From Escherichia coli (GTDB lineage: Bacteria > Pseudomonadota > Gammaproteobacteria > Enterobacterales > Enterobacteriaceae), in the NCBI RefSeq assembly GCF_024223415.1, contig NZ_CP100500.1: a stretch of 64,000 nt of DNA. One strand, given 5' to 3'. Position numbers and translations under genes: made by a program. This document shows positions 1,719 through 20,078 of the stretch, in pieces (within the stretch, counting starts at the first letter, position 1; each line of letters starts with the position of its first letter). Under the pieces are notes generated by a model. That model saw only the letters and a program-made list of their open reading frames with translations. It was not told the origin of the DNA and did not search any database.

Positions 1719-2015
1719 TTATCTGCTCATGGTCATATCTGAAGAAAGCGTATGTCGCACTTCGTCATTAACACCTTTTACTGCTGATCTGGCTGGTACA
1801 GTATGTAAAGTAAGCCATTCGTCAATAGCTGATGAACGCCAGCCCACAGAACCACTACCAAGACGTACCGGCCTTGGGAAGGTTGCATCGTAATATTTCG
1901 ATAACGGATTCATTTTTTCGTAAATTGTCGAACGAGATATACCTAACAATTGGCTCAGTTCAGGCATCCGTAAGATGCGTGAAGGAGTCCAGCAGTGTCC
2001 GGATTGATCTGGCAT
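1719..2015 (-). CDS. AlpA-family (prophage CP4-57 type) transcriptional regulator
   Basis: Motif ILRMPELSQLLGISRSTIYEKMNP...YDATFPRPVRLGSGSVGWRSSAIDEWL matches the AlpA helix-turn-helix pattern; start trimmed to the internal Met (MPDQ) of track ORF 1719..2114. Confidence 0.6.
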   Translation of the reverse strand: MPDQSGHCWTPSRILRMPELSQLLGISRSTIYEKMNPLSKYYDATFPRPVRLGSGSVGWRSSAIDEWLTLHTVPARSAVKGVNDEVRHTLSSDMTMSR

Positions 2016-2237
2016 TTTATCCCCCTTAGTGTGGTGAACTGTCGTTACAGTTTGTATTCCTCGGGTAAATTTTTCTGCGTAAAAAAATGGGTTGAGCAAA
2101 AAGACAATAAACAACTAAAAATCAATATGATAGGAAACAACAGCATTATTGTTATTTTACTTTTCCCTTATCGCTGTCGATTCTCATTATCATTCATGGC
2201 AAAAAAACAGTAAAAGAGGCCCTAGTAATGACTCCGG

Positions 2238-2630
2238 TCAGTAGTACATGTGCTTCGATAAATGAACCAATGGCTTTTCGTTAATTTCCACGGAGCGTGA
2301 AAAGCAAATCGTTTTCAGGGATGGGAGTTTGATGTGAGTACGAAGTATCAGATTGTTGCGCTCAATGCGCCGGGTAAATATCCTGCCGACAGGATGCTTA
2401 TCCTGTGGTACTTCTCTGGTATAACTGCACCAGTTTTCACTGGTTATCATGCCTGAGGAGAATGGCTTCAGAAGTTCCGGCAACTCACTACATGTTTCAT
2501 CAGTACGAGGACCAAAAGTGTAAGCCCGCACACCGCCAGATTTGGTGTTATACGCATACCAGAGCCAGTGCTGACGAGCTTTGTTTCCGACAAAGCTCCA
2601 TTGTTCATCAAGTTCGCATATAAGCGCCAC
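2238..2630 (-). CDS. insB: IS1-family InsB-like transposase ORF
   Basis: MALICELDEQWSFVGNKARQHWLWYAYNTK...TRRIERNNLILRTH aligns with IS1 InsB ([23 protein letters not shown]...TQRIERHNLNLRQH); the frame continues upstream of the first Met. Confidence 0.6.
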   Translation of the reverse strand: MALICELDEQWSFVGNKARQHWLWYAYNTKSGGVRAYTFGPRTDETCSELPELLKPFSSGMITSENWCSYTREVPQDKHPVGRIFTRRIERNNLILRTHIKLPSLKTICFSRSVEINEKPLVHLSKHMYY

Positions 2631-2659
2631 ATCGGCACTGGCGACTGGAGATGTGGTTA

Positions 2660-2916
2660 CTTTGCATGGTGAGCGTTTTTTAAAGTGCGAATGACTGTGT
2701 TGATACCCACCTTCAGTGTTCTGGAGGTATCGCGAACCCCGGTTCCGTTATGAGCCATTTCAACGATTTGCTCTTTAACACTTGGTTTTCGGGCTTCGCA
2801 GGTGTAATTCAGTTGAAATACACGTTTGCAGGAGCGGCACTGGAAACAGTGCTGTGACCGTGACGGTACACTTTATCGGAATTACAGCGGGGACAATGTA
2901 CGGTAACTGTTGCCAT
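2660..2916 (-). pseudogene. insA: IS1-family InsA-like ORF with an apparent frameshift in the N-terminal zinc-finger region
   Basis: Reverse translation gives MATVTVHCPRCNSDKVYRHGHSTV then a stop; another frame continues QHCFQCRSCKRVFQLNYT...VEMAHNGTGVRDTSRTLKVGINTVIRTLKN, which is InsA-like. Confidence 0.45.
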
Positions 2917-3111
2917 ATGGACTCCGGATACCAACAGAATACCCCATTAATCTGCCCCCGGAAGTCATCCCGGTGCCTTCTGACATAATCTGTTAATACA
3001 TGAATTATTGCCCTGTTCAGAAAATATTAATTAAAAAATGAAAACCAGTTAACAGAAAAGCCACATGACATAATGTTAAAATTTTATATCGTGCAATAAA
3101 AGGAGAATGTT

Positions 3112-4938
3112 ATGTACAATTTTATCACTATAATGTATGATGTCTTTTCATGTTTTGGTGTTCTGGCTAAAAACCAGAATATCCGTGACATCCGAAATAT
3201 TAAAAACTTTTCCTCACATCAACATTCACTGGCCGACATGTTTGATGAATTAACATACATTATTGACAAAGAACAGGTACTGAGCACAGAACAACGAAAA
3301 GTTATATTCAGGAGATATGAAGATCTGTATGTTAAACTCATGCACTATTCTGTTTTTACAGACAAAACACATCAAATAATAAAACAAAAATATTTTAATG
3401 ATGTTGTTCCAATGATTCTCGCGCTCGACATCAGGAACACATATCGCCCGGATAATGAGATGGCATTTTACTATCATATCCATTCTTTTCTCACTCAGAT
3501 ACCGGATAATGAGGATGATATATATCATGCTGTAAGGACATATATGAGAAATTATGTTAAGTTATGTTTATCCGGATACACACCAACGAATGCGCATTTC
3601 AAAAATATCTTTGATGGAGTATATGAATTCATTCGTAATATTCGCAAAAACAGTACACCCGGAAAAACAAAACTTATTGCAGCTATCAACATATGCAAAG
3701 AAGCCTGTAAATATCTGCTTTGTTTAAGTGATAAAGACAAGGAAATAATATTTTCCGACTTAGATAAAATTCAGGTTGCATGTTATTCTCTCACTATATT
3801 ACTGGCTTTCGAAAGACGAACATCATTAACAAGTAACCTGGCAACTTTATATAAAATGCTGATAAACGAAAGAGAAGTTTCAGAATATGAATGTCAGCAA
3901 TTATATTTAATCAACCCAATAGATGTAATGAATATACTGAACAAATACATATATTACTTCCCTGGTGAGAATTCACCTCTTTATACACTGAAAATTGACA
4001 GTGCATTATCGTGGGATGCCATTGATGCAATACGAGACTATAGTATTTCTGATATTTATCTTTATCCTGAACAAAAAACAATAAATTGTATCGTTGAGAT
4101 TGAAAACATTGTCTTTGGCGGTTACATTTATACATTGAGCGACGGCGTCACATTACAAAATATGGAAAACACTTTAAAAGATTCCTCATGTCATTATGTA
4201 TTAAATGGCTATACAGAATTTGTTAACTGTTTAAGACAACTTACTTCAGGAAAGACTGAAAGTGTTCAGCGTACCATTAATAAACTGGAGTACGAAAAAT
4301 TACCTTTTGGATTTATCATTGCCGCGTTTGCTATATTAAAAATAGCATTTAAGATAAAGTTCAGTAAAAATCATGTAAATACCAGGGCATTATTAAATGA
4401 CATCAGTTATTTTATGACTTATCAGGGCGAGTCCATTAATCTTATTTCACTGGATCATGAATATCCAGAGTTCCGTCTTCAAAATGACACAAATACATAT
4501 TTATTGGGAAGGATGATATTTCTATATAACTCAATGATCTATAAATTCAGAAACTGCCAGGAACATGAAACCAATAACATTAACTCAGTTATGATAAATA
4601 ACCTATTACAGGAAGTTGATATAGCCCTTGGTAAAATAAATGACATTATAGACAGCAGAAACATATCAGTCCCCCATGAACTGGCAAATATTCTTATCCA
4701 CGAAAAAATACTTACAACACGTGAAAAAAAAGGAAACCTGATAAGCCTGTTTGATGGATTCACTTTATTCCATTGTGTTGGAATGATAACCTTTCTTATC
4801 CATTACCTCAGAACTCCTGAAGAAAAAGTAGAAAATGTATTTATGTTATATGGTGCAGATAAAAACAATAAACTACGCAGAAGACTGATTTATGATGCAC
4901 TAGAAATAATTCAGTCTCAGCAGGAGATGAAACCTTAA
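3112..4938 (+). CDS. Hypothetical 608-aa protein; AT-rich orphan cargo gene with no recognisable motif
   Basis: Long ORF with canonical AAGGAG Shine-Dalgarno 8 nt upstream of the ATG; AT-rich composition; no P-loop, HEPN, nuclease or transmembrane signature seen by eye. Confidence 0.8.
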   Translation: MYNFITIMYDVFSCFGVLAKNQNIRDIRNIKNFSSHQHSLADMFDELTYIIDKEQVLSTEQRKVIFRRYEDLYVKLMHYSVFTDKTHQIIKQKYFNDVVPMILALDIRNTYRPDNEMAFYYHIHSFLTQIPDNEDDIYHAVRTYMRNYVKLCLSGYTPTNAHFKNIFDGVYEFIRNIRKNSTPGKTKLIAAINICKEACKYLLCLSDKDKEIIFSDLDKIQVACYSLTILLAFERRTSLTSNLATLYKMLINEREVSEYECQQLYLINPIDVMNILNKYIYYFPGENSPLYTLKIDSALSWDAIDAIRDYSISDIYLYPEQKTINCIVEIENIVFGGYIYTLSDGVTLQNMENTLKDSSCHYVLNGYTEFVNCLRQLTSGKTESVQRTINKLEYEKLPFGFIIAAFAILKIAFKIKFSKNHVNTRALLNDISYFMTYQGESINLISLDHEYPEFRLQNDTNTYLLGRMIFLYNSMIYKFRNCQEHETNNINSVMINNLLQEVDIALGKINDIIDSRNISVPHELANILIHEKILTTREKKGNLISLFDGFTLFHCVGMITFLIHYLRTPEEKVENVFMLYGADKNNKLRRRLIYDALEIIQSQQEMKP

Positions 4939-4961
4939 ACAGGAAAATTATTTTTTATAAA

Positions 4962-4986
4962 CAGGGGATTATTGAGTAATCCCCTG
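4962..4986. terminator. Hairpin between the convergent 608-aa gene and int
   Basis: Inverted repeat CAGGGGA...TCCCCTG flanked by A/T runs. Confidence 0.35.
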
Positions 4987-5122
4987 CTCATCAAAACCCA
5001 CTTTCCTGACAATCTGATAACTATCAGCTCAATACATTTGACATAAAAGAGATCCCTTAATTATTACCGTTACGGTCACAATCACATATCAAATCATGAT
5101 TGTACAATATACATTTTCACTA

Positions 5123-6325
5123 TTATTTATTCATAATCTGAGACATCACATAATCCGCCCATGCCTGCATCATCGGTACACGCTGCTCCAGTAGATCAGT
5201 ACGATGATATGCCGCCTCAACCTTATTTTTCAGCGTATGAGCGAGCGCCCTTTCAGCCAGATCCCGCGAATACCCCTGCTCACTACACCAGTCCCTGAAT
5301 GTTGAACGAAAACCATGTGCCGTGGCGACTCGCCCCGGAATATCACTGACGGCTTTCTTTTTACGCAGAAAACTGGTCAACACCATATCTGAAAGGATCT
5401 GCTGCTTTCTGGGTGAAGGAAACACCAGTTCATCATGCAGACCACGTATATTTTCCAGAATGTAAATAGCCTGTCGGGATAAAGGAACACGATGCTGTAC
5501 CCTGGCTTTCATTCTTTCTGCTGGTATCGTCCATATCTGCTTATGAAAATCAATTTCAGTCCAGCGCATTCCCCTGGCTTCACCCGAGCGGGTTGCTGTA
5601 AGTATCACCATTAATAACAATGCGCGGGTAACATTATAGGGTTCATCGGTATACACACTGGTCGCCACAAAAAGCGGTAACTGCCTCCATGGCATTGCGG
5701 GTTGGTGTTCATCACGTCCTCTTGTCTGCTGGGGAAGCAAATGATCAACCACATCCACAGGATTTGCCACACAAAAACCATGTGCCCATCCCCACTGCAT
5801 AACAACATGAATGCGCTGTTTAACCCGGCTTGCCGTTTCTGACAAAGTTAACCAGACTGGCCGCAGTGTTTCTGCCACGTCCGCAGCCGTAATCGAATCC
5901 AGCGTTTTCGCTCCCAGTTGAGGAAAGGCGTAATTCTCAAGCGTCGATAACCACTGCCGGACATGCTTTGGATTTTCCCATCCAGGAGACAGTTCTGCAT
6001 GTACACGTCTGGCTGCATCGGCAAATGTTGGGATAACAACTTTTTCAGCCTCAGCCTTTTTAATCTCCAGAGGATCATCACCAGCAGCAAGTTGCTCTCG
6101 CATTATCCGGGCAGTACGTGCAGCTTCAGCAATGCTGATCTCAGGGTAAGTTCCCAATCCAGCATTACGCCTTTTTTGTGTCACCGGACTTACATAACGA
6201 AAAACCCATTTACCCCGACCCTTTACTGAAGAAGGATGAAGGGTCAGTCCTGTAATTCCCCCATGGGGCAATGGTTTGTCATCAGGTTTGATATGCCTTG
6301 CTTTCGTATCCGTCAATACTGCCAT
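5123..6325 (-). CDS. int: Tyrosine integrase, P4/CP4-57 family
   Basis: 400 aa; C-terminal catalytic region HGFRSTFRDWCSEQGYSRDLAERALAHTLKNKVEAAYHRTDLLEQR is typical of P4-like integrases. Confidence 0.9.
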   Translation of the reverse strand: MAVLTDTKARHIKPDDKPLPHGGITGLTLHPSSVKGRGKWVFRYVSPVTQKRRNAGLGTYPEISIAEAARTARIMREQLAAGDDPLEIKKAEAEKVVIPTFADAARRVHAELSPGWENPKHVRQWLSTLENYAFPQLGAKTLDSITAADVAETLRPVWLTLSETASRVKQRIHVVMQWGWAHGFCVANPVDVVDHLLPQQTRGRDEHQPAMPWRQLPLFVATSVYTDEPYNVTRALLLMVILTATRSGEARGMRWTEIDFHKQIWTIPAERMKARVQHRVPLSRQAIYILENIRGLHDELVFPSPRKQQILSDMVLTSFLRKKKAVSDIPGRVATAHGFRSTFRDWCSEQGYSRDLAERALAHTLKNKVEAAYHRTDLLEQRVPMMQAWADYVMSQIMNK

Positions 6326-6543: not shown

Positions 6544-6692
6544 CATTTTATCTGCCTGTACGGCAGTGAACATGGTGGGCGGGTGGAGTATGTTACCAGT
6601 GAATTTCTAAGCTGCCTGTACGGCAGTGAACGTTTGCTGCAACCGCTAGCCAAGACGGTAGGTTTTTCTAAGCTGCCTGTACGGCAGTGAAC
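6544..6692 (-). CRISPR. Orphan type I-F CRISPR mini-array: 3 repeats, 2 spacers, no cas genes in the window
   Basis: Minus-strand repeat GTTCACTGCCGTACAGGCAGCTTAGAAA (the E. coli I-F repeat) at 6604-6631 and 6665-6692 plus a degenerate terminal copy at 6544-6571; spacers of 32-33 nt. Confidence 0.85.
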
Positions 6693-9633: not shown

Positions 9634-9705
9634 TTATATCATTTAGTTAATTAGTCTTTATTTTTCATTATGTTGCAAATAACAAGCCCGTCAAAAACAG
9701 TGATA

Positions 9706-9760
9706 TTAACTACACCATTAACTACACCGCTTCACGAACAATATCGAACAACCGCGAACA
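9706..9760. repeat. Left-arm repeats: AACTACACC x2 followed by CGAACA x3 (candidate integrase or accessory-factor sites)
   Basis: The same motifs recur in the same orientation at 19946-20078. Confidence 0.4.
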
Positions 9761-9880
9761 AAGATCAACACGCTTTAATCATTATCATTTTCCGGCTATC
9801 CGTCATGAAGCTGGTGGATGATCTGCGTGGTGATTTCCACCATTCAGAGCAGGTGCGGTCATCATGACCATGCCATAACA

Positions 9881-9905
9881 AAAACCCCATATTCGTGGTT
9901 TTTCT
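9881..9905 (+). repeat. 25-bp direct repeat copy 1 (AAAACCCCATATTCGTGGTTTTTCT)
   Basis: Second copy AAACCCCCGGATTCGTGGTTTTCCT at 10518-10542; the pair flanks a hairpin-rich non-coding segment. Confidence 0.5.
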
Positions 9906-10517
9906 GTGTCGGGGCTATTCTGCTGTTGCCGTGCTGGTGGATATTCTCCGGTATGCGGCTCCCCATATCGGCATCAGGCCCACCAGCGTGAAGCGTTTTT
10001 CATTTTTCGCGGGTATAAAAAATCGATGGGGCGGGCAGTCCTGAAGACGTCAGGGTACAGAGATTTGACCCGCCCCTCCCTGTGCATGAGCACAATAAGT
10101 AACCGAAGGCGGAATTCCGCCCTCGGTACTTACATATGAGAAACGATATTTCTTCCACCGATACCCTTTATTTGGGTATCGCGAGTAAGCCCCAAAATCT
10201 GGGTGTTACTCTTACTACCCAAACTACGGGTAGTTTCCGTAGTTTCATGGTCGAGTTGCAAATCTGCAACTCACCCACCAGCCAGCGCAATGTCGCATTA
10301 TCAGTCCTCAGATGTGAGGGATGTAGCCAGCTTTTCCCCCAGTGGGGATTATCCAGTTACCGACGGTTTAACCGCCTGTACCAGCACAACGAAAGAATTT
10401 GCGGGTAGCTTTAAACTACTCACAACATCCCATCTTACAGGCCGTGCCTTTCTAACTTTTTACAATGCAATAAGTCAGGTAACGCTATGCGTTCCACCGT
10501 GTACACCGCGCCAGTAA

Positions 10518-10542
10518 AACCCCCGGATTCGTGGTTTTCCTG
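10518..10542 (+). repeat. 25-bp direct repeat copy 2
   Basis: See copy 1 at 9881-9905. Confidence 0.5.
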
Positions 10543-10554
10543 AATATCAGGAAT

Positions 10555-10929
10555 CTACCGCCGCAACCGTTCCGGCTTCTTCCACTGATAAGTGTTTTTC
10601 GCGCTCTCCCTCCGTTGTTGAGAACGGCGACGGTATGCCAGCAACTCAAGGACTCTGGTTCGTATGTTGCGCATATCCACGCCGTTAAGCTCAATACCAT
10701 CACGGCGCATCACCTCAGCAACAACACACGCGTAATTTTCGGCTATCACGCTGTCCGGCTGCGTGGCCTCCTGTTCGCCAGCCTGCTGGCTGATTCCGGT
10801 AATACTGCGGATTATCCCGAGCGCTTCGGTCTCGGTCATGGTCATGGCCTCCATAGTGATGGCGGGTCCTCCTTGTGGGGTGCCCTGCCACGGGGCGGGA
10901 GCATCGCGGAAAAAGGCTAGTTTTTGCAT
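10555..10929 (-). CDS. Hypothetical protein of the satellite packaging module
   Basis: 124-aa ORF downstream of the Nu1-like gene; no recognisable domain; start uncertain. Confidence 0.45.
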   Translation of the reverse strand: MQKLAFFRDAPAPWQGTPQGGPAITMEAMTMTETEALGIIRSITGISQQAGEQEATQPDSVIAENYACVVAEVMRRDGIELNGVDMRNIRTRVLELLAYRRRSQQRRESAKNTYQWKKPERLRR

Positions 10930-11090
10930 TTTTATTCGTTATCACCACCAATGCAATATATTGATATGACTTGATGTTTTATTTTTCGGTGTCGATTTCG
11001 ATTGTTTTTTGTTCATCACTGACGCATAACGCCCACCAGCGCAACGCTGAAAGCCAGTCAGTAAACTGGCTTCGGTCATTGTGCACTACG

Positions 11091-11645
11091 TTACTTGTCT
11101 TTATCCGGCTGAAACTTATCAGGCACATTTCCGGTAGTTTCCATCAGATAATCGGACAGCATTCGCGGGATGTTTTCATCAAGTTTTGTGCATGCGTTAC
11201 AGGCTCTGACAACTTCTTTTTTCAGGCCATCCAGCATGGCGGGGGTCATCTGTGGGAAGCTCCTTTGCATAGTAAGCGGGAGGCTGTCCATGATTGATGA
11301 AATCTGACTCGCCAGTTTTGAAAGCGCGTACATGCAAAACTCTGTATCAATCACGTCACCGCGATCGCGCTCGTTTTTAAGTTCCTGCGCCTCCGCCTGT
11401 GCTGTCAGTAATCTGATCCTGACTCGTAAAAGTTCATCATCGTCAATCTCGCCTTTGTCGTTTGTAATCTGGCTGATTGCATTGTTAACCCGATTATCTA
11501 TTACACTGGCGACATCATAAAACGTCTCACGGCCCTTACGCTCGACGGGAATCACTCCCCACTTATCGAACGCAGTGGCGCTTACTCGGCAGCTTTTCGC
11601 CATGTTTTTTTTATTCATCAGGTGCGATTTCATCAATACCCCCAC
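11091..11645 (-). CDS. Terminase small subunit, lambda Nu1-like
   Basis: LLRVRIRLLTAQAEAQELKNERDRGDVIDTEFCMYALSKLASQISSIMDSLPLTMQRSFPQM...LDENIPRMLSDYL aligns with lambda Nu1; probable true start at the MNKKNMAK Met near 11618. Confidence 0.8.
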   Translation of the reverse strand: MGVLMKSHLMNKKNMAKSCRVSATAFDKWGVIPVERKGRETFYDVASVIDNRVNNAISQITNDKGEIDDDELLRVRIRLLTAQAEAQELKNERDRGDVIDTEFCMYALSKLASQISSIMDSLPLTMQRSFPQMTPAMLDGLKKEVVRACNACTKLDENIPRMLSDYLMETTGNVPDKFQPDKDK

Positions 11646-11727
11646 TTAATTAATGCTTCAGGTTGGTGTGTTGGTGTTATCTTTCCATTTTTATTCATAG
11701 AGATAGAGCGAACAACAAAACCACCAC

Positions 11728-11790
11728 CAACCCGAAAAGGCTCATAAATAGCGAAAATCCGCAAGGTCGACGCCCCGTAACGGGTCCACA
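11728..11790 (-). other. Lambda-type cos site (cosN/cosB)
   Basis: Minus strand reads ACGGGGCGTCGACCTTGCGGATTTTCGCTATTTATGAGCCTTTTCGGG, matching the lambda cos sequence as I recall it (ACGGGGCGGCGACCTCGCGGGTTTTCGCTATTTATGAAAATTTTCCGG); about 120 bp upstream of the Nu1-like gene. Confidence 0.8.
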
Positions 11791-11805
11791 TGCCGGAAAG
11801 GACCC

Positions 11806-11835
11806 ATAAAAAATAAAGCCGGACTACTCCGGCTT
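11806..11835 (-). terminator. Rho-independent terminator after the FinO/ProQ-like gene
   Basis: Stem AGCCGGA / TCCGGCT followed on the minus strand by a T-rich run. Confidence 0.5.
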
Positions 11836-11858
11836 CGTCTCTTCATGTGGTCAGGGTT

Positions 11859-12539
11859 TTATGCTTTCCGTACGCCCGAGGAACTGGCATTTTTCAGAAT
11901 AATATTATGCCCTGCTGGTGGCTTACCGTTATGCTTATTTTCTGCCTTCATGTTTCTGCGCTCCTGCTGTTTTTTCTTCATCTCATCCAGTCGCTTCCCC
12001 GCGTTCAACTGGTGCTCCTGTGTCACCTCCCCGCACGGATGGCCTTTCAGGTCGTAACGCACGCCACCAGCCATCAGGGAACGGTAATATCGCACTGAAC
12101 TGACATAATACGCCAGCGTTGCGCGAAGCGCTCCCTGACCTAATGAAATACCTCTCGCAGTAATATCCTCCATCAGGTCATCAAATATGCCAACCTTAAG
12201 CGGTCTGGGCGATTCCTGGCTGAAAAGTTCAGGCCAGAGCGCGGCAAGGCGTTCAACGCGTCTGATATTTTTTTTCCGGCTCTTTTCTGATTTGCGTTTT
12301 GCTGCCGTCTTCTGTTGTGTTTTCTGCTCGCGGCTCTGCTTTTGCGCTGGTGTGGTTTTATCCGGCTGTTCAGCCTCCTGCGTCTTTTTCTGCGGTGTGC
12401 CGTATATGCCTTTTGGTTTTCGGTTAATGGTCAGCTTTGTCATGTTCTCCCCCTTTGTGCTGTTCCACCAGCGGCATCTGCTACCCCGTGTCGCTCCCGC
12501 TGGTGTCGTGTTTCCCCGCCTGTTAATAACCGTCATCAT
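11859..12539 (-). CDS. FinO/ProQ-domain RNA-binding protein with a Lys/Gln-rich N-terminal region
   Basis: RPLKVGIFDDLMEDITARGISLGQGALRATLAYYVSSVRYYRSLMAGGVRYDLKGHPCGEVTQEHQ aligns with the E. coli ProQ N-terminal domain (RPLKIGIFQDL...RLYTSSWRYL...RVDLDGNPCGEL); start uncertain. Confidence 0.75.
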   Translation of the reverse strand: MMTVINRRGNTTPAGATRGSRCRWWNSTKGENMTKLTINRKPKGIYGTPQKKTQEAEQPDKTTPAQKQSREQKTQQKTAAKRKSEKSRKKNIRRVERLAALWPELFSQESPRPLKVGIFDDLMEDITARGISLGQGALRATLAYYVSSVRYYRSLMAGGVRYDLKGHPCGEVTQEHQLNAGKRLDEMKKKQQERRNMKAENKHNGKPPAGHNIILKNASSSGVRKA

Positions 12540-12843
12540 TTACGTTATCAGGGTAATCACGCCATATTTCATCAGTAAGCGACGGTAGCCCCATCTGTTG
12601 TATTGTCCTGTCTGCGGCCCTTCTGACTGCGTGAACATCATAACGGTTTTCAGGTATCGGGCGCTTTGCCTTCCTGATACATTCCCTTGCTCTCATTGCC
12701 GCAAGTTCTCTGTGCCTGTCTTCCTGAAGAGTAATCATCACATCCTGCCACCTTCTGGCAGCCCGTCGCCACAGTCCCCTGCTCTCGAGTTCTTCTGCTG
12801 TCGCGTCGCTTATTGTCCGGTTCTTCGGTGTGCTGTTGTTCAT
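12523..12843 (-). CDS. PerC-family transcriptional activator-like protein
   Basis: N-terminal EELESRGLWRRAARRWQDVM resembles the PerC/Pch signature (recalled, not searched). Confidence 0.55.
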   Translation of the reverse strand: MNNSTPKNRTISDATAEELESRGLWRRAARRWQDVMITLQEDRHRELAAMRARECIRKAKRPIPENRYDVHAVRRAADRTIQQMGLPSLTDEIWRDYPDNVNDDGY

Positions 12844-12860
12844 GTTGCTCCCCGCCTGAT

Positions 12861-13271
12861 TCAGAAGGGTATATCATCTCCGTAGGGGTCATCGCCTCCC
12901 GCTGGTGGCTTATTCCCCTGTGCGCCTGTGGTTTTGCGTGTTTTTCCGCCCGGTCGCACTGTCCGCGCACTGATTACGCTGTCTGCGATAACCTGCCAGC
13001 CCTGCCGCGTTTCCCCGTTCTGTCCGGTCCACTGGCTCACCTGCATGTTACCCGCCACGCTCAGGAGTTCACCCTTGCGGTGCTTTGCCAGTGCTTCGGC
13101 CTGTCTGCCAAACGCCAGCACAGATAACCACATCGTCGCCGTTCCGTCATCTGCCTGGCTGCACGGAAGGGGGACCGCCATACTCGCCATCGCCATTTGT
13201 GTCCCCTTGCTGGTGGTCTTTAACTGCGGGTCAGCCACCAGCCGCCCGTAAGCCGCTATCTGTGCTGTCAT
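12861..13271 (-). CDS. ssb: Single-stranded DNA-binding protein (SSB)
   Basis: OB-fold-like N-terminus (IAAYGRLVADPQLKTTSKGTQMAMASMAV), Gly-rich linker and the acidic C-terminal tail DDIPF. Confidence 0.8.
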   Translation of the reverse strand: MTAQIAAYGRLVADPQLKTTSKGTQMAMASMAVPLPCSQADDGTATMWLSVLAFGRQAEALAKHRKGELLSVAGNMQVSQWTGQNGETRQGWQVIADSVISARTVRPGGKTRKTTGAQGNKPPAGGDDPYGDDIPF

Positions 13272-13525
13272 GCTGTATGCTCTCCGGTTTTAACGTTGAT
13301 GGTTGTCACCTGTTCCGCTCCGGCAATCTCCCGTTCTGTCAGCGTGGCAAAATTTGCCGCTACCGTTGTCATGAATGCGCTTATCAGTGCGGGATGTGCT
13401 TTCGCGTATCCTTCTCCCGCGCTGCGGTCGATAATTTTTATCGCCACCCTCAGCCAGTGCTCTGTAAGGTCAATGGCGCGGTTATGTGGTTTCTTCTGAT
13501 TATTAAGTTTTCCTGATGTGTGCAT
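13268..13525 (-). CDS. Hypothetical protein
   Basis: 85-aa ORF overlapping the ssb start by 4 nt (translational coupling). Confidence 0.5.
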   Translation of the reverse strand: MHTSGKLNNQKKPHNRAIDLTEHWLRVAIKIIDRSAGEGYAKAHPALISAFMTTVAANFATLTEREIAGAEQVTTINVKTGEHTA

Positions 13526-13570
13526 TTTTATTTTTACCCCCTCGTTTAAAAAGTTTTGTGTTGTGGTGCA

Positions 13571-13806
13571 CCTCCTCTACCTCTCTACACAATCATCTTT
13601 CAGGTCAGTAATGGCGCGGCTTTCAGCGGGGTAGAGGGCTTTTTTGGCCCTCTACCTGCCATCTACCACCCCCTCACAAATGCCCTGAATTATGGTAGAG
13701 GGTGTAGAGGGCTTTTAAGTACCTTCTACCTGCCATCTACCCAATCTATCAACATGAAATATATGTAATTATTTTCTTAAGGTAGAAGGGGTAGAGGGCT
13801 TTTGTC
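13571..13806. repeat. Iteron cluster; candidate satellite replication origin
   Basis: At least three copies of GGTAGAGGGCTTTT and repeated CTACCTGCCATCTACC, including the palindrome GGTAGAGGGC-TTTTTTG-GCCCTCTACC, immediately 3' of the primase gene. Confidence 0.55.
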
Positions 13807-13811
13807 TAAAA

Positions 13812-15560
13812 CTATAAAAACGCGTCGCAGTCGTCTGTTGTTGTCACGTTGGTTTGCGTAACCCCTTTAATCCTGCGCGTTATATATTCATGTCCGTAAA
13901 CTTTCGCCGCTGGCTTCATGGCCTTGCTGAACTCAGCCACGTTCAGCGGTTTGCTCCTGCCTGCATACGCCATAAACGCCAGATAGACGCGGTAAAGGCT
14001 GTTTCTGGTCGTGTACTTCACGGAATCGCCACCGCCCCCCATCATCAGGCCACGTGCTTCCTCCAGAAAATTCAGGAACTGGCAAAACTCAATAACCGGA
14101 TCCGTTTGCTGCTTTATCGCCAGTGCTTCATCACCGTCACGCTGTTCCAGTAGTAAAGCCCGCGCCTTTTCAGGGTCTGCAAAGTTCGCCAGTAATCGGC
14201 GGATAATGACGGGGATTTCAGCCGCAATCCTTTCCGGTAGCTCCCTGTCTTTTTCAGCCTCACTGACGATATTGTCGAAACGAAAAATCACGCGACGACG
14301 TGCCACACCTCCGGCCCGTTCGGTGAATATCATCGGGTTATTGTTGGTCGCCAGCACCACCGCCCTGATTACAGCCGTGAAACGCTTTTCGTATTTCGGG
14401 TTAATTTCCACGGGGTCACCGCCCGTGATTTTCTTGATGCCCGTTCCTTCGCCTGTATATTTCGGCTGGTCTGCCAGGACGATAAGACGACTCCCGACAA
14501 CCTGCGCACGCCCACCAGCATCATCAAGCGATGTCATCTCAGCGCTTACCGTGTTCTGTTTCCCTGCCAGAAGGCTGGCTATGTGCGTGAATGTACTTTT
14601 ACCGCTCCCGCCGTCTCCGGTGGCCTCAATAAACATCTGCCAGTCGTACCGGTTCGCCATAATCATGTACAGCGCGGCACATATACGCATCATCTTGCGC
14701 GGGTCTTTTCCGGCTGCGTGCTCAAGCCATTTATGAAAGTTTGGCGCGTTATCGCGGATGTTCTCCCCAGGTGCTGGTGGCGTGTACTCAATGCCATTGT
14801 GCGTGGTGATCCAGTTCTCCGGCGTGTGCGGGGAAAATTCCCCCGTTTTCAGGTCAAGCGCACCATTGGCGAACGGCAGCAAATCGCCGGACGGCTCGCC
14901 CATTGGTTCGGCAATAACTTTTAACGCTTCCACGGCGTTATTGATTACGCGCTTGCTGAAAGTGGCCCTGTGCTCTGAATAGATCGCCACCATTTCGCGG
15001 CTCAGTTCCATTGTGCTGACCGGACACCATACCCCGCCGCGCCATACGTGAACGATTTCACTTTCCGGATGCACACAAACGCCATCAAATCGACCAGCAA
15101 GCATCTGTGCGCGCTCACTGTCTGCCATTTGTGCCAGTTGCGTATTTTTCTGCTCCGGCATGGTAAGCCCTGCAGCAATATTTTCACGCTCAGCATTCAG
15201 ATAACGCCGCCAGTTTTCACACTTCTGACCGTGCATTCCTTCGGGGTAAAAATTTGCGTCCTGTACGCCAGCCGCCGCCAGCTTCTGACCAATCGCCTTT
15301 ATCATTACTGGCGCAAGATATCCGGCCCTGAATATACGCACGGATTTTCTGCCTTCCGGCACAATTTGCAGCTTATCCAGTTCGGATAACTGCTGCTCCC
15401 CAAGCCACACAGGAGGCTCATTATCTCCGGCCATACGCGCGTCATGTTCCTGCCATTGTTTCGCGTGTGCCCAGGCATCACTACCCGCAAAAATAATGAC
15501 TTCAGTTCCTTTGTGTTTTATGCCGCGTGACTGCAGTTTTACGTTCGGTGCCAGTTTCAT
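13812..15560 (-). CDS. Replication protein: primase/helicase (P4 alpha-like, P-loop NTPase)
   Basis: 582 aa; Walker A GDGGSGKSTFT; size and position match satellite pri-rep genes. Confidence 0.8.
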   Translation of the reverse strand: MKLAPNVKLQSRGIKHKGTEVIIFAGSDAWAHAKQWQEHDARMAGDNEPPVWLGEQQLSELDKLQIVPEGRKSVRIFRAGYLAPVMIKAIGQKLAAAGVQDANFYPEGMHGQKCENWRRYLNAERENIAAGLTMPEQKNTQLAQMADSERAQMLAGRFDGVCVHPESEIVHVWRGGVWCPVSTMELSREMVAIYSEHRATFSKRVINNAVEALKVIAEPMGEPSGDLLPFANGALDLKTGEFSPHTPENWITTHNGIEYTPPAPGENIRDNAPNFHKWLEHAAGKDPRKMMRICAALYMIMANRYDWQMFIEATGDGGSGKSTFTHIASLLAGKQNTVSAEMTSLDDAGGRAQVVGSRLIVLADQPKYTGEGTGIKKITGGDPVEINPKYEKRFTAVIRAVVLATNNNPMIFTERAGGVARRRVIFRFDNIVSEAEKDRELPERIAAEIPVIIRRLLANFADPEKARALLLEQRDGDEALAIKQQTDPVIEFCQFLNFLEEARGLMMGGGGDSVKYTTRNSLYRVYLAFMAYAGRSKPLNVAEFSKAMKPAAKVYGHEYITRRIKGVTQTNVTTTDDCDAFL

Positions 15561-15856
15561 TTTTTACCCCTGAATCCGTTAATCATGGTTTTCATCTTCT
15601 GAATATTGGCGCGTGCTTTCTCCCTGCTGGTGGGCACGTTACGCGGTACGGCCTGCACAAGAGAAAAATCACGCACAAACTGATAAACAGGCATCACGCA
15701 ATCATATTCGTAACCTTCATGGCGGTAGGTGATGCGCCGTTCTGCCACGCCTTTAATCGTTACCGTACCGCCGTAGTTATCACGGAAAATATCGCCGGGA
15801 CGGATTTCAGGCCGAGTGAGGCCGCTGGCAGTAAAGCCAGAATTTTTCTTTTTCAT
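15557..15856 (-). CDS. Hypothetical protein (99 aa), coupled to the primase gene
   Basis: Stop overlaps the primase start (ATGA). Confidence 0.6.
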   Translation of the reverse strand: MKKKNSGFTASGLTRPEIRPGDIFRDNYGGTVTIKGVAERRITYRHEGYEYDCVMPVYQFVRDFSLVQAVPRNVPTSREKARANIQKMKTMINGFRGKK

Positions 15857-15886
15857 GGTTTTATTTTCCTGTCAGTGATTCCGGCT

Positions 15887-16060
15887 TTATTCCGGCGCGA
15901 ATACAGGCTTCAGAAAAAAAGCCAGAGAACCAATAACCTCATTATTTCTAAGGCGGCATTGCGATTTCACTTTCCCTTTATCCAGGAATATCAAAACGCG
16001 CCCCGTATAATCAGATGGCACATTAAGCACTACAGGTAAGTGCGCTTCATGATTATTCAT
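15887..16060 (-). CDS. Hypothetical small protein (57 aa)
   Basis: Start trimmed to the ATG preceded by AGGAGGTGG; N-terminus MNNHEAHLPVVLNV; start overlaps the stop of the upstream gene. Confidence 0.5.
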   Translation of the reverse strand: MNNHEAHLPVVLNVPSDYTGRVLIFLDKGKVKSQCRLRNNEVIGSLAFFLKPVFAPE

Positions 16061-16340
16061 GGCTAACCACCTCCTGGAATTTTCTTCTGTAACGCGCCTC
16101 TGCCACATATTCAGCATAGTCCGACGCAATATTGAGAATATCGCTACCCGTTCCTGAATGTTCGGCGGTTTCCAGTAAAAAACATGCAGCTTTTACCATG
16201 TCAGCAACACATAACAGCGCAATATCTGTATCTTCCGGTGTGCCATCAAATTCCTGTTTCAGGGCATTAAAACGATCATCACGCATAACCCCATATTCAC
16301 AATCAGCAATCAGGATGGCTTTGGCCTCATTCAGTGCCAT
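16053..16340 (-). CDS. Hypothetical protein; N-terminal extent uncertain (may start at 16496)
   Basis: Only the C-terminal 95-147 codons of the 662-aa track ORF look protein-like (MALNEAKAILIADCEYGVMRDDRFNALKQEFDGTPEDTDIALLCVADMVKAACFLLETAEHS). Confidence 0.4.
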   Translation of the reverse strand: MALNEAKAILIADCEYGVMRDDRFNALKQEFDGTPEDTDIALLCVADMVKAACFLLETAEHSGTGSDILNIASDYAEYVAEARYRRKFQEVVSHE

Positions 16341-16494
16341 ATCAGCGGTAAGCTGTGCGTAGGCCAGCAAATGCGGGATTATTGCCCCTGTATATTCCGG
16401 CTCTCTGATAATGTGGTCGGATGTGTTGATTAAATAGTTTGTGCGAAAAATGCACCTGTAACCATCAGTTAACAACGGATATACAGGGGGGACC

Positions 16495-16665
16495 ATGAAT
16501 GATAAGGGGGTGCCGTTTGATGTGCTCCTGCAAAAGCTGAATGCTGCACGCGCCGCAAGGGAACGTGAGCGCATGAGTAATAACCCTGTCCCTCCTGAAT
16601 TACCTCGCCCTGAACATTTTCCGCTTGAGGATTTCATCAGGGGACGAATCCGAACAAAACGATAA
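16495..16665 (+). CDS. Small protein (56 aa), paralog of the 16909 ORF
   Basis: ATG preceded by a G-rich Shine-Dalgarno; shares the PxxFPLE(D/R)FI motif with ORF 16909..17103; below the track length cutoff. Confidence 0.35.
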   Translation: MNDKGVPFDVLLQKLNAARAARERERMSNNPVPPELPRPEHFPLEDFIRGRIRTKR

Positions 16666-16908
16666 CCGCCGCCGTGATATGAGGCATCACGACGCAATGC
16701 ATTACAGGTGAGCACCATGAACAAATCCATATTATCCCCCACAGTTCTGGACGTAAACACAAAGCAGCGACAGATATTATTACGCGCCGTCATTAAAGCC
16801 AGACACGAGAAATTAAACCAAATCTTAAAATAAGATACGCCGCTACCGCTGTAAGTCTTCATCAGAAACAGAAAACGCCAGAGCAGATGAGCACGGAGGT
16901 AACTCTTT

Positions 16909-17103
16909 ATGAAAATAAACGAATCAGGGGAAATTACCGAAGCCAGCGTGGTACGCCAGCGGAGGCGGGAACGACGGGTACGGCCCCCCGCGCCATCCGA
17001 TAATTTCCCGCTTGAGCGCTTCATCAGTGAACGGCCCCGCATACGCTGGAACGGCACAACCCCATACCCCGAGGAGAGACAGACAAAAAACAAACAGCGA
17101 TGA
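16909..17103 (+). CDS. Small protein (64 aa), paralog of the 16495 ORF
   Basis: GGAGGT Shine-Dalgarno 9 nt upstream; C-terminal FPLERFISERPRIR. Confidence 0.4.
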   Translation: MKINESGEITEASVVRQRRRERRVRPPAPSDNFPLERFISERPRIRWNGTTPYPEERQTKNKQR

Positions 17104-17382
17104 TGAAATCTGGAGGCCAATACCATCACCCAGCCAGTCGGGGATTGCTGGCGGGCTTCCTGTTCGCTGGTGGCCCCGATGGTAATAACGCGTGGTTGTG
17201 CTGTGCTCAGGGCGATAAAACGCCAGATGTATTTATTCAGGTTGTGCGGGTCCCGCCCTTGCGGGTGTGTGGTATGATTTAACATAGCTACCTCGATACG
17301 CTTTCTATCGTTGGTGGTTAGAAGCCCCGTTACTGCTCCAACAGTGCGGGGTTTCGTCGTTTCTGCACCTTTCATCAACAAG

Positions 17383-17434
17383 GTGTTGAACACCAATTTA
17401 AGCCTAGGTGTTAAACACGCCAAGTGTTGAACAC
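17383..17434 (+). promoter_or_regulatory. Three palindromic operator-like sites GTGTT(G/A)AACAC
   Basis: Sites at 17383-17393, 17408-17418 and 17424-17434, about 50 bp upstream of the small gene at 17485. Confidence 0.55.
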
Positions 17435-17484
17435 TTATTTTTTTTCCTGCATACTGCATTTGTTTTTTGTAAGGGGTACACAAC

Positions 17485-17664
17485 ATGGCGACAAAAGCAG
17501 TAAACGCAAAATCACAAACAGTTGCGGCAAGGGTTCCGCATGAAGTTATGAACAATGTTGAGGCGGTAAAAATGCCTGGTGAAAGTACAGGGCAGTTTGT
17601 AACAGCAGCATTAAAGCGAGAAGTTGAATACCGCCAGCGCCGCAAGGCCAAAGAATCAGAATAA
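17485..17664 (+). CDS. Small DNA-binding protein, ribbon-helix-helix-like (59 aa)
   Basis: AAGGGG Shine-Dalgarno; N-terminal strand-like TVAARVPHEVMNNVEAV then a basic helix; downstream of the palindromic operators. Confidence 0.45.
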   Translation: MATKAVNAKSQTVAARVPHEVMNNVEAVKMPGESTGQFVTAALKREVEYRQRRKAKESE

Positions 17665-17712
17665 TCACTATCAGCGCCGTGGTGTGAGGTACTGCGGCGC
17701 ATTGTTTTAAAG

Positions 17713-17913
17713 GTGATAATTATGAATAACCAGGAACTACAAAATAAAGCATTATCAATTATCATGCGCCAGCGTGAGAAAACCCGCAGGGAAATAAATA
17801 AGGCATTAACCCGTACTGAAAATCTTAAAGTTCCTGATAAGTTCGCCCTTGATCCTTTTGTCGAGAAATACCCTCGGCGCTTAAAAGCAAACAAAAACCG
17901 CCCACCTGGCTGA
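17713..17913 (+). CDS. Hypothetical small protein (66 aa)
   Basis: AGGTGA Shine-Dalgarno; basic helical sequence. Confidence 0.4.
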   Translation: MIIMNNQELQNKALSIIMRQREKTRREINKALTRTENLKVPDKFALDPFVEKYPRRLKANKNRPPG

Positions 17914-18051
17914 CAATCCACCAGCAAGCCACCACACTGGACACATTGCCCACCAGCCAGCAAATCGCTATGATGTTCGGGCTTATGTTTAGTGTTTTCC
18001 CATTGGCGACCGCCCCCGGTCGCCTTTGTTTTATGTGTCATATACTCCCCT

Positions 18052-18348
18052 TTACGCTGCCTTGCCTGAATTAATGCGATCCCGGCTTTTAACCCATTCC
18101 ATAACCTCGGACAGCAGCCAACCTACAGAACGCCCACCAAGATTACGGCGAGACGGAAAGCTCCCTTTTTTCTCCAGTTCGTAGCGTGTAGTGCGACACA
18201 CTCCAGTTAACTTACGACATTCATCCTCACGGATTACGCGATCTTCATTTATTTCACGCATACAAAAACCTACATAAAAATTACGTATATAAACTTTTCT
18301 CTTAGCTGTAGATATATGAGATCGGATATTACTTAGATTCTTTTTCAC
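18052..18348 (-). CDS. AlpA-family transcriptional regulator
   Basis: C-terminal TRYELEKKGSFPSRRNLGGRSVGWLLSEVMEWV matches the AlpA pattern; true start may be an internal Met. Confidence 0.7.
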   Translation of the reverse strand: MKKNLSNIRSHISTAKRKVYIRNFYVGFCMREINEDRVIREDECRKLTGVCRTTRYELEKKGSFPSRRNLGGRSVGWLLSEVMEWVKSRDRINSGKAA

Positions 18349-18680
18349 CTCTTAAATTAAAAACACAACCATGCTAAAGGCTTTGTTCGCTAAGGTTCGT
18401 AGAAGCTCGTTAGTGTTTAAAATCGTGTCACGAGTTTTTAAGCGACGCAACAAAAAATGTCGTCATTTGGCATGTCACCTGAATTACCTCATTAAAAACA
18501 AATAGATAAACCATCAGATGTTGGAACAATCAAGAAACAGAGAATAAGAACTCAGAAGAAGACATTTCAATTTTTTTCGATAGTTGACACATATAAAGAG
18601 AAGATATTTGCAGATATTCCCCGATATTCTAAGATCTATTCACGGCTGTAATCTCTTAAAGAAAAAACAGCCGTAATTTG

Positions 18681-19919
18681 TCAAGAATTTTGGGGGTAAA
18701 TTCGCGGGGTCATAACAACGATTTTTTCATCATTGTTCTGGAGAAGCTCGAGACGGTCTACCCATAGATTAAGAGCGTCACGCTTTGCATCGAGATAACG
18801 GGAGTGGTTATAGACGCGTTGCATTCCTGGCATCTGGTGGGCAGTAAGCTGTTCAACAATATGCGGATCCACGCCTAAATCGTTCAGCATGGTTGTAAAT
18901 GTGTGCCGGATGTCGTGCAACGACCAGGGGGCTTGATTAATGCGTCTGTGTGCCGTTCTTCCGTACTCTGCTACGGATGATTGCCCTTTCAGTTCTCCAA
19001 GCAATAAGCCCGTGTGCCTGTTCTGCTCCACCAGCTTCATGACGAACGGCAAGATCGCTTCCGGTATTGGCCTGAATATTGCTACCTTCGTTTTGCTGTG
19101 TTCTTTCGGCACAGTCCAGAGCATTTCTTTAAAATCCCATTCCCGAACCTCGGAGCGTCTTAGCTCAGTGGTACGGCATCCGAAGACAATCAGAAGGCGA
19201 ATTAAAGCGCTGTAGTACGGCGGGAAAATTTTTTCATCCAGTGCGCGGAGTAGCTCGCCAAGCTCCTTGTTTGTTAGCACTCGCTCGCTTATTTCTGCTT
19301 TTTTTCCCACATCACCTACGACCATATCATCAAGAACGTTACTGACGGCGTAGCGACGTTTACGGCAGTACTTAAGCGCCTGTTTGCATACCTGCAACAA
19401 AAAGCCGGCTGATACCGGATTACGCTTAGCAAGCTGGTCAAAACAGGCCAGCCAGTGGCGTAGCTCGCATTTATCCAGCGGCATAGCACCAATCTGGCTG
19501 ATTATGTGCTTATTGATACGGCTTTTCAGTGATTCGTGGTCAGTGCGCTTTTCCTTCGCATACGACTCAAGCCAGTAAGTGAGCGCGTCCTTAACCGTCA
19601 CGGGGGCTAACGCTTCCTGCACTGTGTGATTAAGCTCATGGCGTGGATTTTTCCCCTCCGCCAGCCAGGCGCGACACTGTGCCGCTTTTTCCCTGGCTGC
19701 TTTCAGGCTCAGATCGGGATAGTTGCCCAGTCTCAGGCGTTCCGGTGATACCTGCCTGCCAGTTCCGGCCCTGTAAGTGAAATACCAGGTTAACAGGCCG
19801 CTGGTGGAATGTCTTACGCTAAGATTGCCACCGTCATTAAAAAAGGCGTTTTTTGTGGTTGGTGATCCGCTTAATTTTCGTAAAAGAGTGTCGCTAAGTC
19901 TATGAATTGCGCTGCTCAT
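18681..19919 (-). CDS. int: Tyrosine integrase
   Basis: 412 aa; catalytic region LHDIRHTFTTMLNDLGVDPHIVEQLTAHQMPGMQRVYNHSRY. Confidence 0.9.
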   Translation of the reverse strand: MSSAIHRLSDTLLRKLSGSPTTKNAFFNDGGNLSVRHSTSGLLTWYFTYRAGTGRQVSPERLRLGNYPDLSLKAAREKAAQCRAWLAEGKNPRHELNHTVQEALAPVTVKDALTYWLESYAKEKRTDHESLKSRINKHIISQIGAMPLDKCELRHWLACFDQLAKRNPVSAGFLLQVCKQALKYCRKRRYAVSNVLDDMVVGDVGKKAEISERVLTNKELGELLRALDEKIFPPYYSALIRLLIVFGCRTTELRRSEVREWDFKEMLWTVPKEHSKTKVAIFRPIPEAILPFVMKLVEQNRHTGLLLGELKGQSSVAEYGRTAHRRINQAPWSLHDIRHTFTTMLNDLGVDPHIVEQLTAHQMPGMQRVYNHSRYLDAKRDALNLWVDRLELLQNNDEKIVVMTPRIYPQNS

Positions 19920-19945
19920 GTTTCGCGTTTCCGGTCATCAAAATT

Positions 19946-20078
19946 AACTACACCATTGACTACACCGTGCATCGTACAAGGGCAAACCGTGACGAACAAG
20001 AGCGAACAAGTAAAACAAAATTTTCCTTTATAATCATAGCGATGAATGCACACAAAACACTACCACGAACACCCGCGA
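19946..20078. repeat. Right-arm repeats: AACTACACC / GACTACACC followed by CGAACA motifs
   Basis: Same motifs and orientation as the left arm at 9706-9760; overlaps the int promoter region. Confidence 0.4.

Follow-up and report, generated by a model that had tools for sequence, protein, structure and literature searches.

The minus-strand gene at 11859..12443 of the window (the whole stretch of E. coli chromosomal DNA that was analysed, 64,000 nucleotides in length) is assignable, from its sequence, to the ProQ/FinO-domain family as an orthologue of neither ProQ nor plasmid FinO, and forms the last gene in the replication operon of a satellite of the EcCICFT073 type. The reading that we favour, to which a probability of roughly 55% is attached, is that its product serves as a FinO-type RNA-binding protein which acts on a few satellite or helper transcripts through a conserved pocket, and is made when a helper phage induces the satellite. 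FinO-domain proteins constitute a third major class of bacterial RNA chaperones, and PICIs are widespread satellites in which the control steps known so far are exerted by proteins (AlpA, Rpp). The occurrence of FinO-domain genes on plasmids, phages and islands is an established theme, and those mobile-element members studied so far (FinO, FopA and PcnR) each work through a single antisense RNA encoded by the element, thereby controlling the spread or copy number of their own element (PMC9977716). No study of a FinO-domain protein or RNA chaperone in an E. coli PICI was found in the literature searched. The family identity of the protein is already public, RefSeq naming it 'ProQ/FINO family protein' (WP_029400542.1), and the sequence alone holds no surprise for a specialist; the gene makes RNA-level (post-transcriptional) control of satellites directly testable, an entry point that rests on conservation, purifying selection, adjacency to the replication module and the presence of DNA relatives in 1075 of the 5426 complete E. 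coli genomes. Should the protein turn out to do no more than stabilise RNA in a generic way, the finding would stay one of routine annotation.

Gene limits, protein architecture and RNA-contact residues

The open reading frame from which the original prediction set out (11859-12539, minus strand) does exist as a maximal ORF of 226 aa, but its start had been placed 32 codons (96 nt) too far upstream. Since the N-terminus MTKLTINRKP kept in most homologues, the GGGGGAG directly 5' of the ATG at 12443, and the RefSeq start for WP_029400542.1 (also 12443) all agree, this ATG was taken as the start of a gene of 194 codons plus stop; the same SD-ATGACAAAGCTG context recurs in distant related loci. 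The 5' part of the maximal ORF (12444..12539, minus strand) lies outside the gene and corresponds to the PerC-FinO spacer, including the SD at around 12447-12453; it overlaps the 3' end of PerC, as would any coding extension to 12539. The notion that this spacer represents a fossil ssb 3' end, which arose from a 23-nt repeat, received no support on alignment.

The Pfam ProQ/FINO profile (PF04352) matched residues 95-195 of the 226-aa ORF at 92.5 bits (E 2.1e-26; cut-off 27 bits), covering profile positions 8-107 of 109 (100/109). The corresponding sequence matches to solved structures were ProQ-NTD (5nb9, E 4e-18), FinO (1dvo, 2e-15) and RocC (7rgt, 2e-12), with Lpp1663 and NMB1681 as further matches. 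An AlphaFold2 model generated from an alignment of 101 sequences gave a mean pLDDT of 83 overall and values above 90 for approximately residues 50-170, the low-confidence parts being residues 1-44 and the last ~25 residues. When the model was compared with the PDB using Foldseek, the top 27 matches were all FinO-domain proteins (FinO, RocC, NMB1681, Lpp1663 and ProQ-NTD, including structures 1dvo, 7rgt/7rgu and 3mw6), with noise below, and FinO itself ranked first (E 7e-8, rmsd 2.3 Å over 105 columns). Taken with the retention of the pocket residues described below, these profile and structure matches lie far beyond chance, and thus establish as real the ProQ/FinO fold that had been proposed for the C-terminal region with PF04352 as the suggested check.

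The predicted secondary structure (helices 86-97, 103-114 and 117-125, strands 128-130 and 136-139, then a helix at 142-172) describes a mostly alpha-helical fold of FinO type with a two-stranded beta hairpin, modelled at pLDDT >90. The ProQ/FinO domain (residues 63-165; 11949..12257, minus strand) is preceded by a basic Lys/Gln/Thr-rich extension (residues 1-62; 12258..12443, minus strand) that contains 20 K+R and 8 Q with a pI of 10.96, in keeping with the long Lys/Gln-rich basic stretch noted from the outset; residues 1-44 of this extension are modelled as disordered, and a long helix begins at residue 45. Beyond the domain, the long C-terminal helix extends to around residue 172 and leads into a 29-residue basic tail region (residues 166-194; 11862..11948, minus strand) which is specific to this allele, longer than in relatives, and modelled as disordered at low confidence. 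PF04352 was the sole Pfam domain identified, there being neither a second domain nor the linker and Tudor-like C-terminal domain of ProQ.

This layout is FinO-like rather than ProQ-like. The two proteins are of similar length (186 aa for FinO of the F-like plasmids, 194 aa here), are both encoded by mobile elements, and have in common a basic N-terminal extension, a long helix, the FinO domain and a C-terminal helix, together with an N-terminal LT(I/L)xRK motif (LTINRK here, LTLKRK in FinO). However, identity to FinO over the domain is only ~34%, and the scores obtained with both NCBIfam models fell far short of their cut-offs (FinO, NF010317: 75.2 bits versus 136, aligned over positions 43-181 of 186; ProQ equivalog, NF003434: 75.8 bits versus 127), and it is for these reasons that the protein is placed as an orthologue of neither. 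The context likewise differs from that of FinO, being a chromosomal satellite rather than a plasmid and having no tra, FinP or traJ surroundings. E. coli ProQ, although the best sequence match among solved structures and sharing the RPLK-GIF, RY, R-DL and G-PCGE motifs, is a core-genome rather than an island gene product.

The RocC-RocR structure was used as the key to residues likely to contact RNA: in RocC the 3'-nucleotide pocket consists of Y87, R97 and the beta-turn G52, while the hairpin backbone is read by the helix N-cap S70-K71-S72, at three phosphates, and by R75 (PMC9674577). Legionella RocC (7rgu, with the RocR terminator) has the same fold (TM 0.8 normalised to target), and its Y87, R97, G52 and R75 correspond to Y119, R129, G85 and R107 of the PICI protein; by way of contrast, it represses competence, is encoded in the core genome and has a long extension at its C-terminus. 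Y119 and R129 proved to be invariant in 101/101 aligned sequences and G85 was present in 26/27 close and 63/74 distant relatives, while K83 and R107 are largely conserved, the latter position being R or K in 24/27 close relatives. These conserved residues suggest that the PICI FinO protein binds RNA. At the position equivalent to the RocC N-cap, where a helix also begins, the PICI protein has G102-Q103-G104, as against S-K-S in RocC, the usual S-K-T in ProQ and S-H-K in FinO; a G-x-G cap is present in 94-97% of close family members and in ~27% of the more distant relatives that were sampled. With G-Q-G in place of S-K-T, recognition of the hairpin may differ or be weaker, so that 3'-end recognition may have been retained while hairpin recognition was altered.

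The host satellite and distribution of the subfamily

The element that carries the gene is ~10.2 kb in length, is inserted between clpS and yljB/cspD, and is bounded by a 25-nt att direct repeat (ATTAACTACACCATTAACTACACCG) at 9705..9729 (plus strand) with its second copy at 19943..19967 (plus strand). From the integrase end, its order is a tyrosine integrase (18681..19919, minus strand), an alpA-like HTH gene, a divergent YlcI/YnfO operon, icd-like and DUF4222 genes, a P4-type primase of the D5_N/DUF5906 kind (13812..15560, minus strand), and iterons at 13628..13803 (GGGGTAGAGGGCTTTT x3 plus partner repeats), which mark the presumed PICI ori directly 3' of the primase gene. There follow a small ORF, ssb (12861..13271, minus strand), a PerC-family regulator (12523..12843, minus strand), the FinO gene, an intrinsic terminator, lambda-type cosQ/cosN, a Nu1-like gene and a terminal small ORF. 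The cosQ/cosN region (11742..11805, minus strand) aligns just upstream of lambdoid-phage terS, with cosQ and cosN conserved and a divergent cosB that continues to the start of the rpp-like gene (11091..11633, minus strand), which encodes a Nu1/TerS-like protein (Phage_Nu1 domain, 82 bits) of the type that redirects helper packaging; the same arrangement, with cosQ/cosN kept and cosB divergent, has been described for EcCICFT073 and its Rpp protein (PMC6739421). The 100 nt beyond the operon terminator also match non-coding DNA of lambdoid phages.

The element thus combines att boundaries, an integrase, alpA, a primase and an ori with no lysis, tail, portal or terminase-large-subunit genes, and is collinear with EcCICFT073, the prototype E. 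coli cos-PICI from strain CFT073, in respect of integrase, alpA, icd-like gene, DUF4222, primase (94% aa identity), ssb, PerC, terminator family, lambda-type cos, rpp-type gene and terminal small ORF. On this collinear backbone and the cos/Rpp module it is classed as an EcCICFT073-type cos/Rpp PICI, and the initial description of the gene as satellite-encoded was correct. The difference between the two lies between ssb and cos, where EcCICFT073 has no FinO gene and has instead another PerC allele together with capsid-like and decoration genes. EcCICFT073 works as a satellite all the same, so that the PICI life cycle does not require the FinO gene. In a sister element (L011), an identical FinO gene is separated from cos by ~2.2 kb of additional sequence.

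PerC and the FinO gene belong to one transcription unit, of which the FinO gene is the last member, its SD-ATG lying 80 nt after PerC; no promoter-like site was predicted in this 80-nt spacer. The stop codon is followed 22 nt later by the operon terminator (11806..11836, minus strand), a strong hairpin (z = -7.3) of the form GAAGCCGGA-GUAG-UCCGGCUU plus U-tail, the A-rich 5' flank of which pairs with the tail. Because the gene sits in the replication operon and has no predicted promoter of its own, the protein is probably made on helper-induced activation.

Two further features of the element were recorded in passing. Chi (GCTGGTGG) is strongly enriched in the PICI (9705-19967, 10.3 kb), which has 19 of the 32 sites in the window, in both orientations (for example at 9810, 9933, 11914, 12064, 12465, 12901, 13209 and 13235), equivalent to 1.85 per kb as against 0.24 per kb in the flanks and a shuffled expectation of ~1.9 per 64 kb. 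The median in 53 related satellite-sized loci was 0.91 per kb and EcCICFT073 has 10 sites in 10.9 kb; this enrichment may reflect protection of a Gam-less, cos-cut satellite from RecBCD. In addition, three palindromes of the form GTGTT(G/A)AACAC at 17380-17445, where the icd-like operon and the YlcI/YnfO-family gene diverge, form an array that looks like operators for a small repressor.

A clustered-protein search returned 136 relatives at E<=1e-5, of 160-215 aa and nearly all from Escherichia, Shigella, Salmonella and Citrobacter, while a library of 50%-identity representatives returned 2580 at E<=1e-3 and only 2 at E<=1e-30; by these searches the proteins form a distinct and compact enterobacterial subfamily. 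The allele present in the window is rare, being represented by a single cluster (53 member sequences), beyond which the nearest relatives are 64-68% identical. At the DNA level, the 1075 E. coli genomes with relatives contained up to nine copies each, and all 1514 matches were chromosomal; the contexts sampled consisted of PICIs and CP4-type islands, with one island copy frameshifted. Cultured phage genomes yielded only four weak relatives, and PHROGs contained matching families with no function assigned there. The sole match above 60% identity in a plasmid collection (positions 103-547 of the 17.9 kb record CP088625.1) was in three unannotated pieces, and could represent an excised or mis-assembled satellite.

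Gene neighbourhoods were compared for 85 loci with a FinO match, comprising 80 from a collection of viral contigs (IMG/VR) plus annotated E. coli loci. DUF4222 and primase genes lay upstream in the same orientation at 76 of them, and involved several primase and integrase types; ssb was directly upstream at 44, and PerC was present at 64, as a rule directly after the FinO gene, with stop and start codons that overlap in some cases. In the lineage represented by the window the order is PerC then FinO. Intact ORFs were recovered from 70 loci (51 distinct alleles), for which the median pairwise dN/dS was 0.25 (1183 pairs), with closely similar values in the N-terminal region (about 0.21-0.25) and the domain (about 0.24-0.25), a result that places the subfamily under purifying selection as judged from these alleles.

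Candidate RNA partners and alternative roles

Both of the RNAs initially put forward as targets, the adjacent terminator and the hairpin-rich distal segment, were considered as possible partners. Hairpins of the terminator family, GCCGG(G)A-loop-U(C)CCGGC plus U-tail, follow the FinO/PerC module in most of the 80 IMG/VR loci and show pair-preserving variants across loci. However, EcCICFT073 has this hairpin family twice, including after PerC and before cos, even though it has no FinO gene; the terminator is therefore a part of the PICI backbone and not FinO-linked, and its candidature as a specific target found no specific support. The flank types found below the stem in ProQ ligands and FinO ligands have been described (PMC12001967), and the A-U pairs that flank the operon terminator are of the type reported for ProQ rather than FinO ligands. 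A strong hairpin with U-tail at 17674-17708 (plus strand), in the interval that separates the YlcI/YnfO gene from the next small ORF, has a flank unlike those of the other PICI terminators, an A-A mismatch followed by C-U directly below the stem, which is the FinO-ligand type (PMC12001967); this hairpin occurs in few related loci only. A third strong terminator of the PICI is located at 18005-18033 (plus strand).

The distal non-coding tail (~9730-10555) is indeed rich in hairpins (RNA MFE z-scores: minus strand -9.3, plus strand -5.5), but as a specific target for the protein it found no support, consisting of a mosaic of short blocks that are common piecewise to ~2430 of 5426 E. coli genomes and that also form the ends of PICIs which have no FinO gene and of a cf-PICI. 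Part of it resembles an HK97-type cos: an 83-nt block (9998-10080) that contains the inverted repeat GGGGCGGG...CCCGCCCC shows ~94% identity to the sequence that separates the genes for the HNH endonuclease and the P27-family TerS in an HK97-like prophage (L090). In HK97-type phages cos lies in the HNH-TerS gap. By virtue of this match, the lambda-cos/Rpp PICI may carry a second cos of the HK97/cf-PICI type, and the distal tail is probably, at least in part, a DNA-level packaging feature.

Nor did other candidates emerge. A terminator-like hairpin antisense to the FinO gene (12229-12275, plus strand) is not conserved and derives from the Lys/Asn/Arg codons of this allele. Across the replication module, the only conserved antisense terminators were the hairpins of the divergent YlcI/YnfO operon, which are also present in EcCICFT073, and Rfam searches at the gathering threshold and at E<=5 gave no match within the PICI. 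By these searches no RNA partner is nameable from sequence.

In the mechanism that we favour, the protein, with its disordered basic N-terminal extension, long helix, FinO domain and C-terminal helix, would represent a PICI-resident enterobacterial subfamily whose gene is co-transcribed with the satellite replication genes (primase, ori, ssb, PerC, FinO, terminator). Expression would occur, to judge from AlpA-driven EcCICFT073 as an analogue, when a helper phage switches the satellite on. The pocket formed by G85, K83, Y119 and R129, together with R107, would then hold a terminator-type hairpin at its base, along with the 3'-OH end of the U-tail, as in RocC-RocR, while the basic N-terminal region would aid RNA pairing or remodelling as it does in FinO. 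The expected outcome would be that a few satellite or helper-phage transcripts are protected, or that antisense pairing is promoted, during the satellite lytic cycle; such a narrow target set on satellite or helper would be in line with FinO, FopA and PcnR (PMC9977716).

Four other roles, which are not mutually exclusive, were weighed against this mechanism. That the protein is a controller of copy number, helping a small antisense RNA to pair with the primase/replication mRNA, in its leader or its coding region, and so limiting replication, would be unlikely, although the position of the gene immediately after primase, ori iterons and ssb in 76 of the 85 loci, across several primase and integrase types, is what such a role would lead one to expect. 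FopA (IncI1 pCol1B9) and PcnR (IncI2), the best-studied mobile-element FinO proteins other than that of F, are small proteins which act on RNA of their own element and repress replication via antisense RNAs (PMC9977716), and an episomal Vibrio satellite has a ProQ/FinO-like gene among its plasmid-maintenance functions (PMC13230959). The PICI gene likewise adjoins a replication module, but one that is primase/iteron-based rather than RepZ/RepA-based, and the comparison with FopA and PcnR was drawn from their described features. Opposite DUF4222 or primase, no conserved combination of antisense promoter and terminator was found, no Rfam antisense RNA family was detected in the PICI, and the antisense hairpin inside primase (14409-14427) is present also in EcCICFT073, which has no FinO gene. 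A role directed at the host, with the protein co-expressed with PerC as a competitor of or supplement to ProQ that rewires the stability of host, plasmid or prophage RNAs for the benefit of the lysogen, was judged quite unlikely. It would accord with the ProQ N-terminal domain being the best sequence match among solved structures, with the tight linkage to PerC, with the relatives in non-PICI CP4-type islands, and with PICI terminators that have flanks of ProQ type (A-U pairs or pyrimidine mismatches below the stem). The position in an inducible operon with no predicted promoter of its own, however, argues against expression in the quiescent state, as do the low NCBIfam ProQ score and the missing Tudor-like C-terminal domain against a ProQ-like function.

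Interference with the helper, by which the protein would bind helper RNAs such as lambdoid terminator-bearing antisense or late-leader transcripts and so delay or skew helper development, appears very unlikely. The PICI region after ori usually holds interference genes (PMC6739421), and in the window the FinO gene and a different PerC allele occupy the slot taken in EcCICFT073 by PerC, terminator and the capsid-like/decoration genes, directly upstream of cos-rpp; but most relatives are located upstream of PerC, far from the packaging module, and PADLOC gave no match to any defence system. That the gene is a decaying or functionless passenger is scarcely credible: the rarity of the allele, its atypical C-terminal tail and the frameshifted island copy would fit such a view, but the dN/dS of 0.25, the 70 loci with intact ORFs and the invariance of Y119 and R129 all speak against it. 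A bolder reading of the whole subfamily, as a dedicated RNA-level weapon or governor in the conflict between satellite and helper that is made only on induction and captures helper terminator RNAs or a putative satellite antisense RNA, is considered improbable. If true, it would imply that the protein times satellite replication and packaging relative to the development of the helper, and that the G-x-G N-cap marks a changed RNA specificity; no protein RNA chaperone would have been shown before to take part in the life cycle of a phage satellite.

Neighbouring elements

Outside the PICI, two CRISPR repeats (Rfam CRISPR-DR4, 50 bits each) were located at 6604-6692, between an integrase gene and clpA, with a third similar copy at ~6553-6580; since no cas genes lie near these repeats, they look like the remnant of an orphan array. 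The integrase in question (P4-type; 5123-6325, minus strand) belongs to a second integrative element beside clpA (1719-6325), in which were also identified an AlpA-family gene (1719-2114), an IS1 transposase fragment (2238-2630) and an ORF of 608 aa with no Pfam match (3112-4938). ARAGORN detected no tRNA in the window, and related genomes have tRNA-Ser at the site of this clpA-side element.
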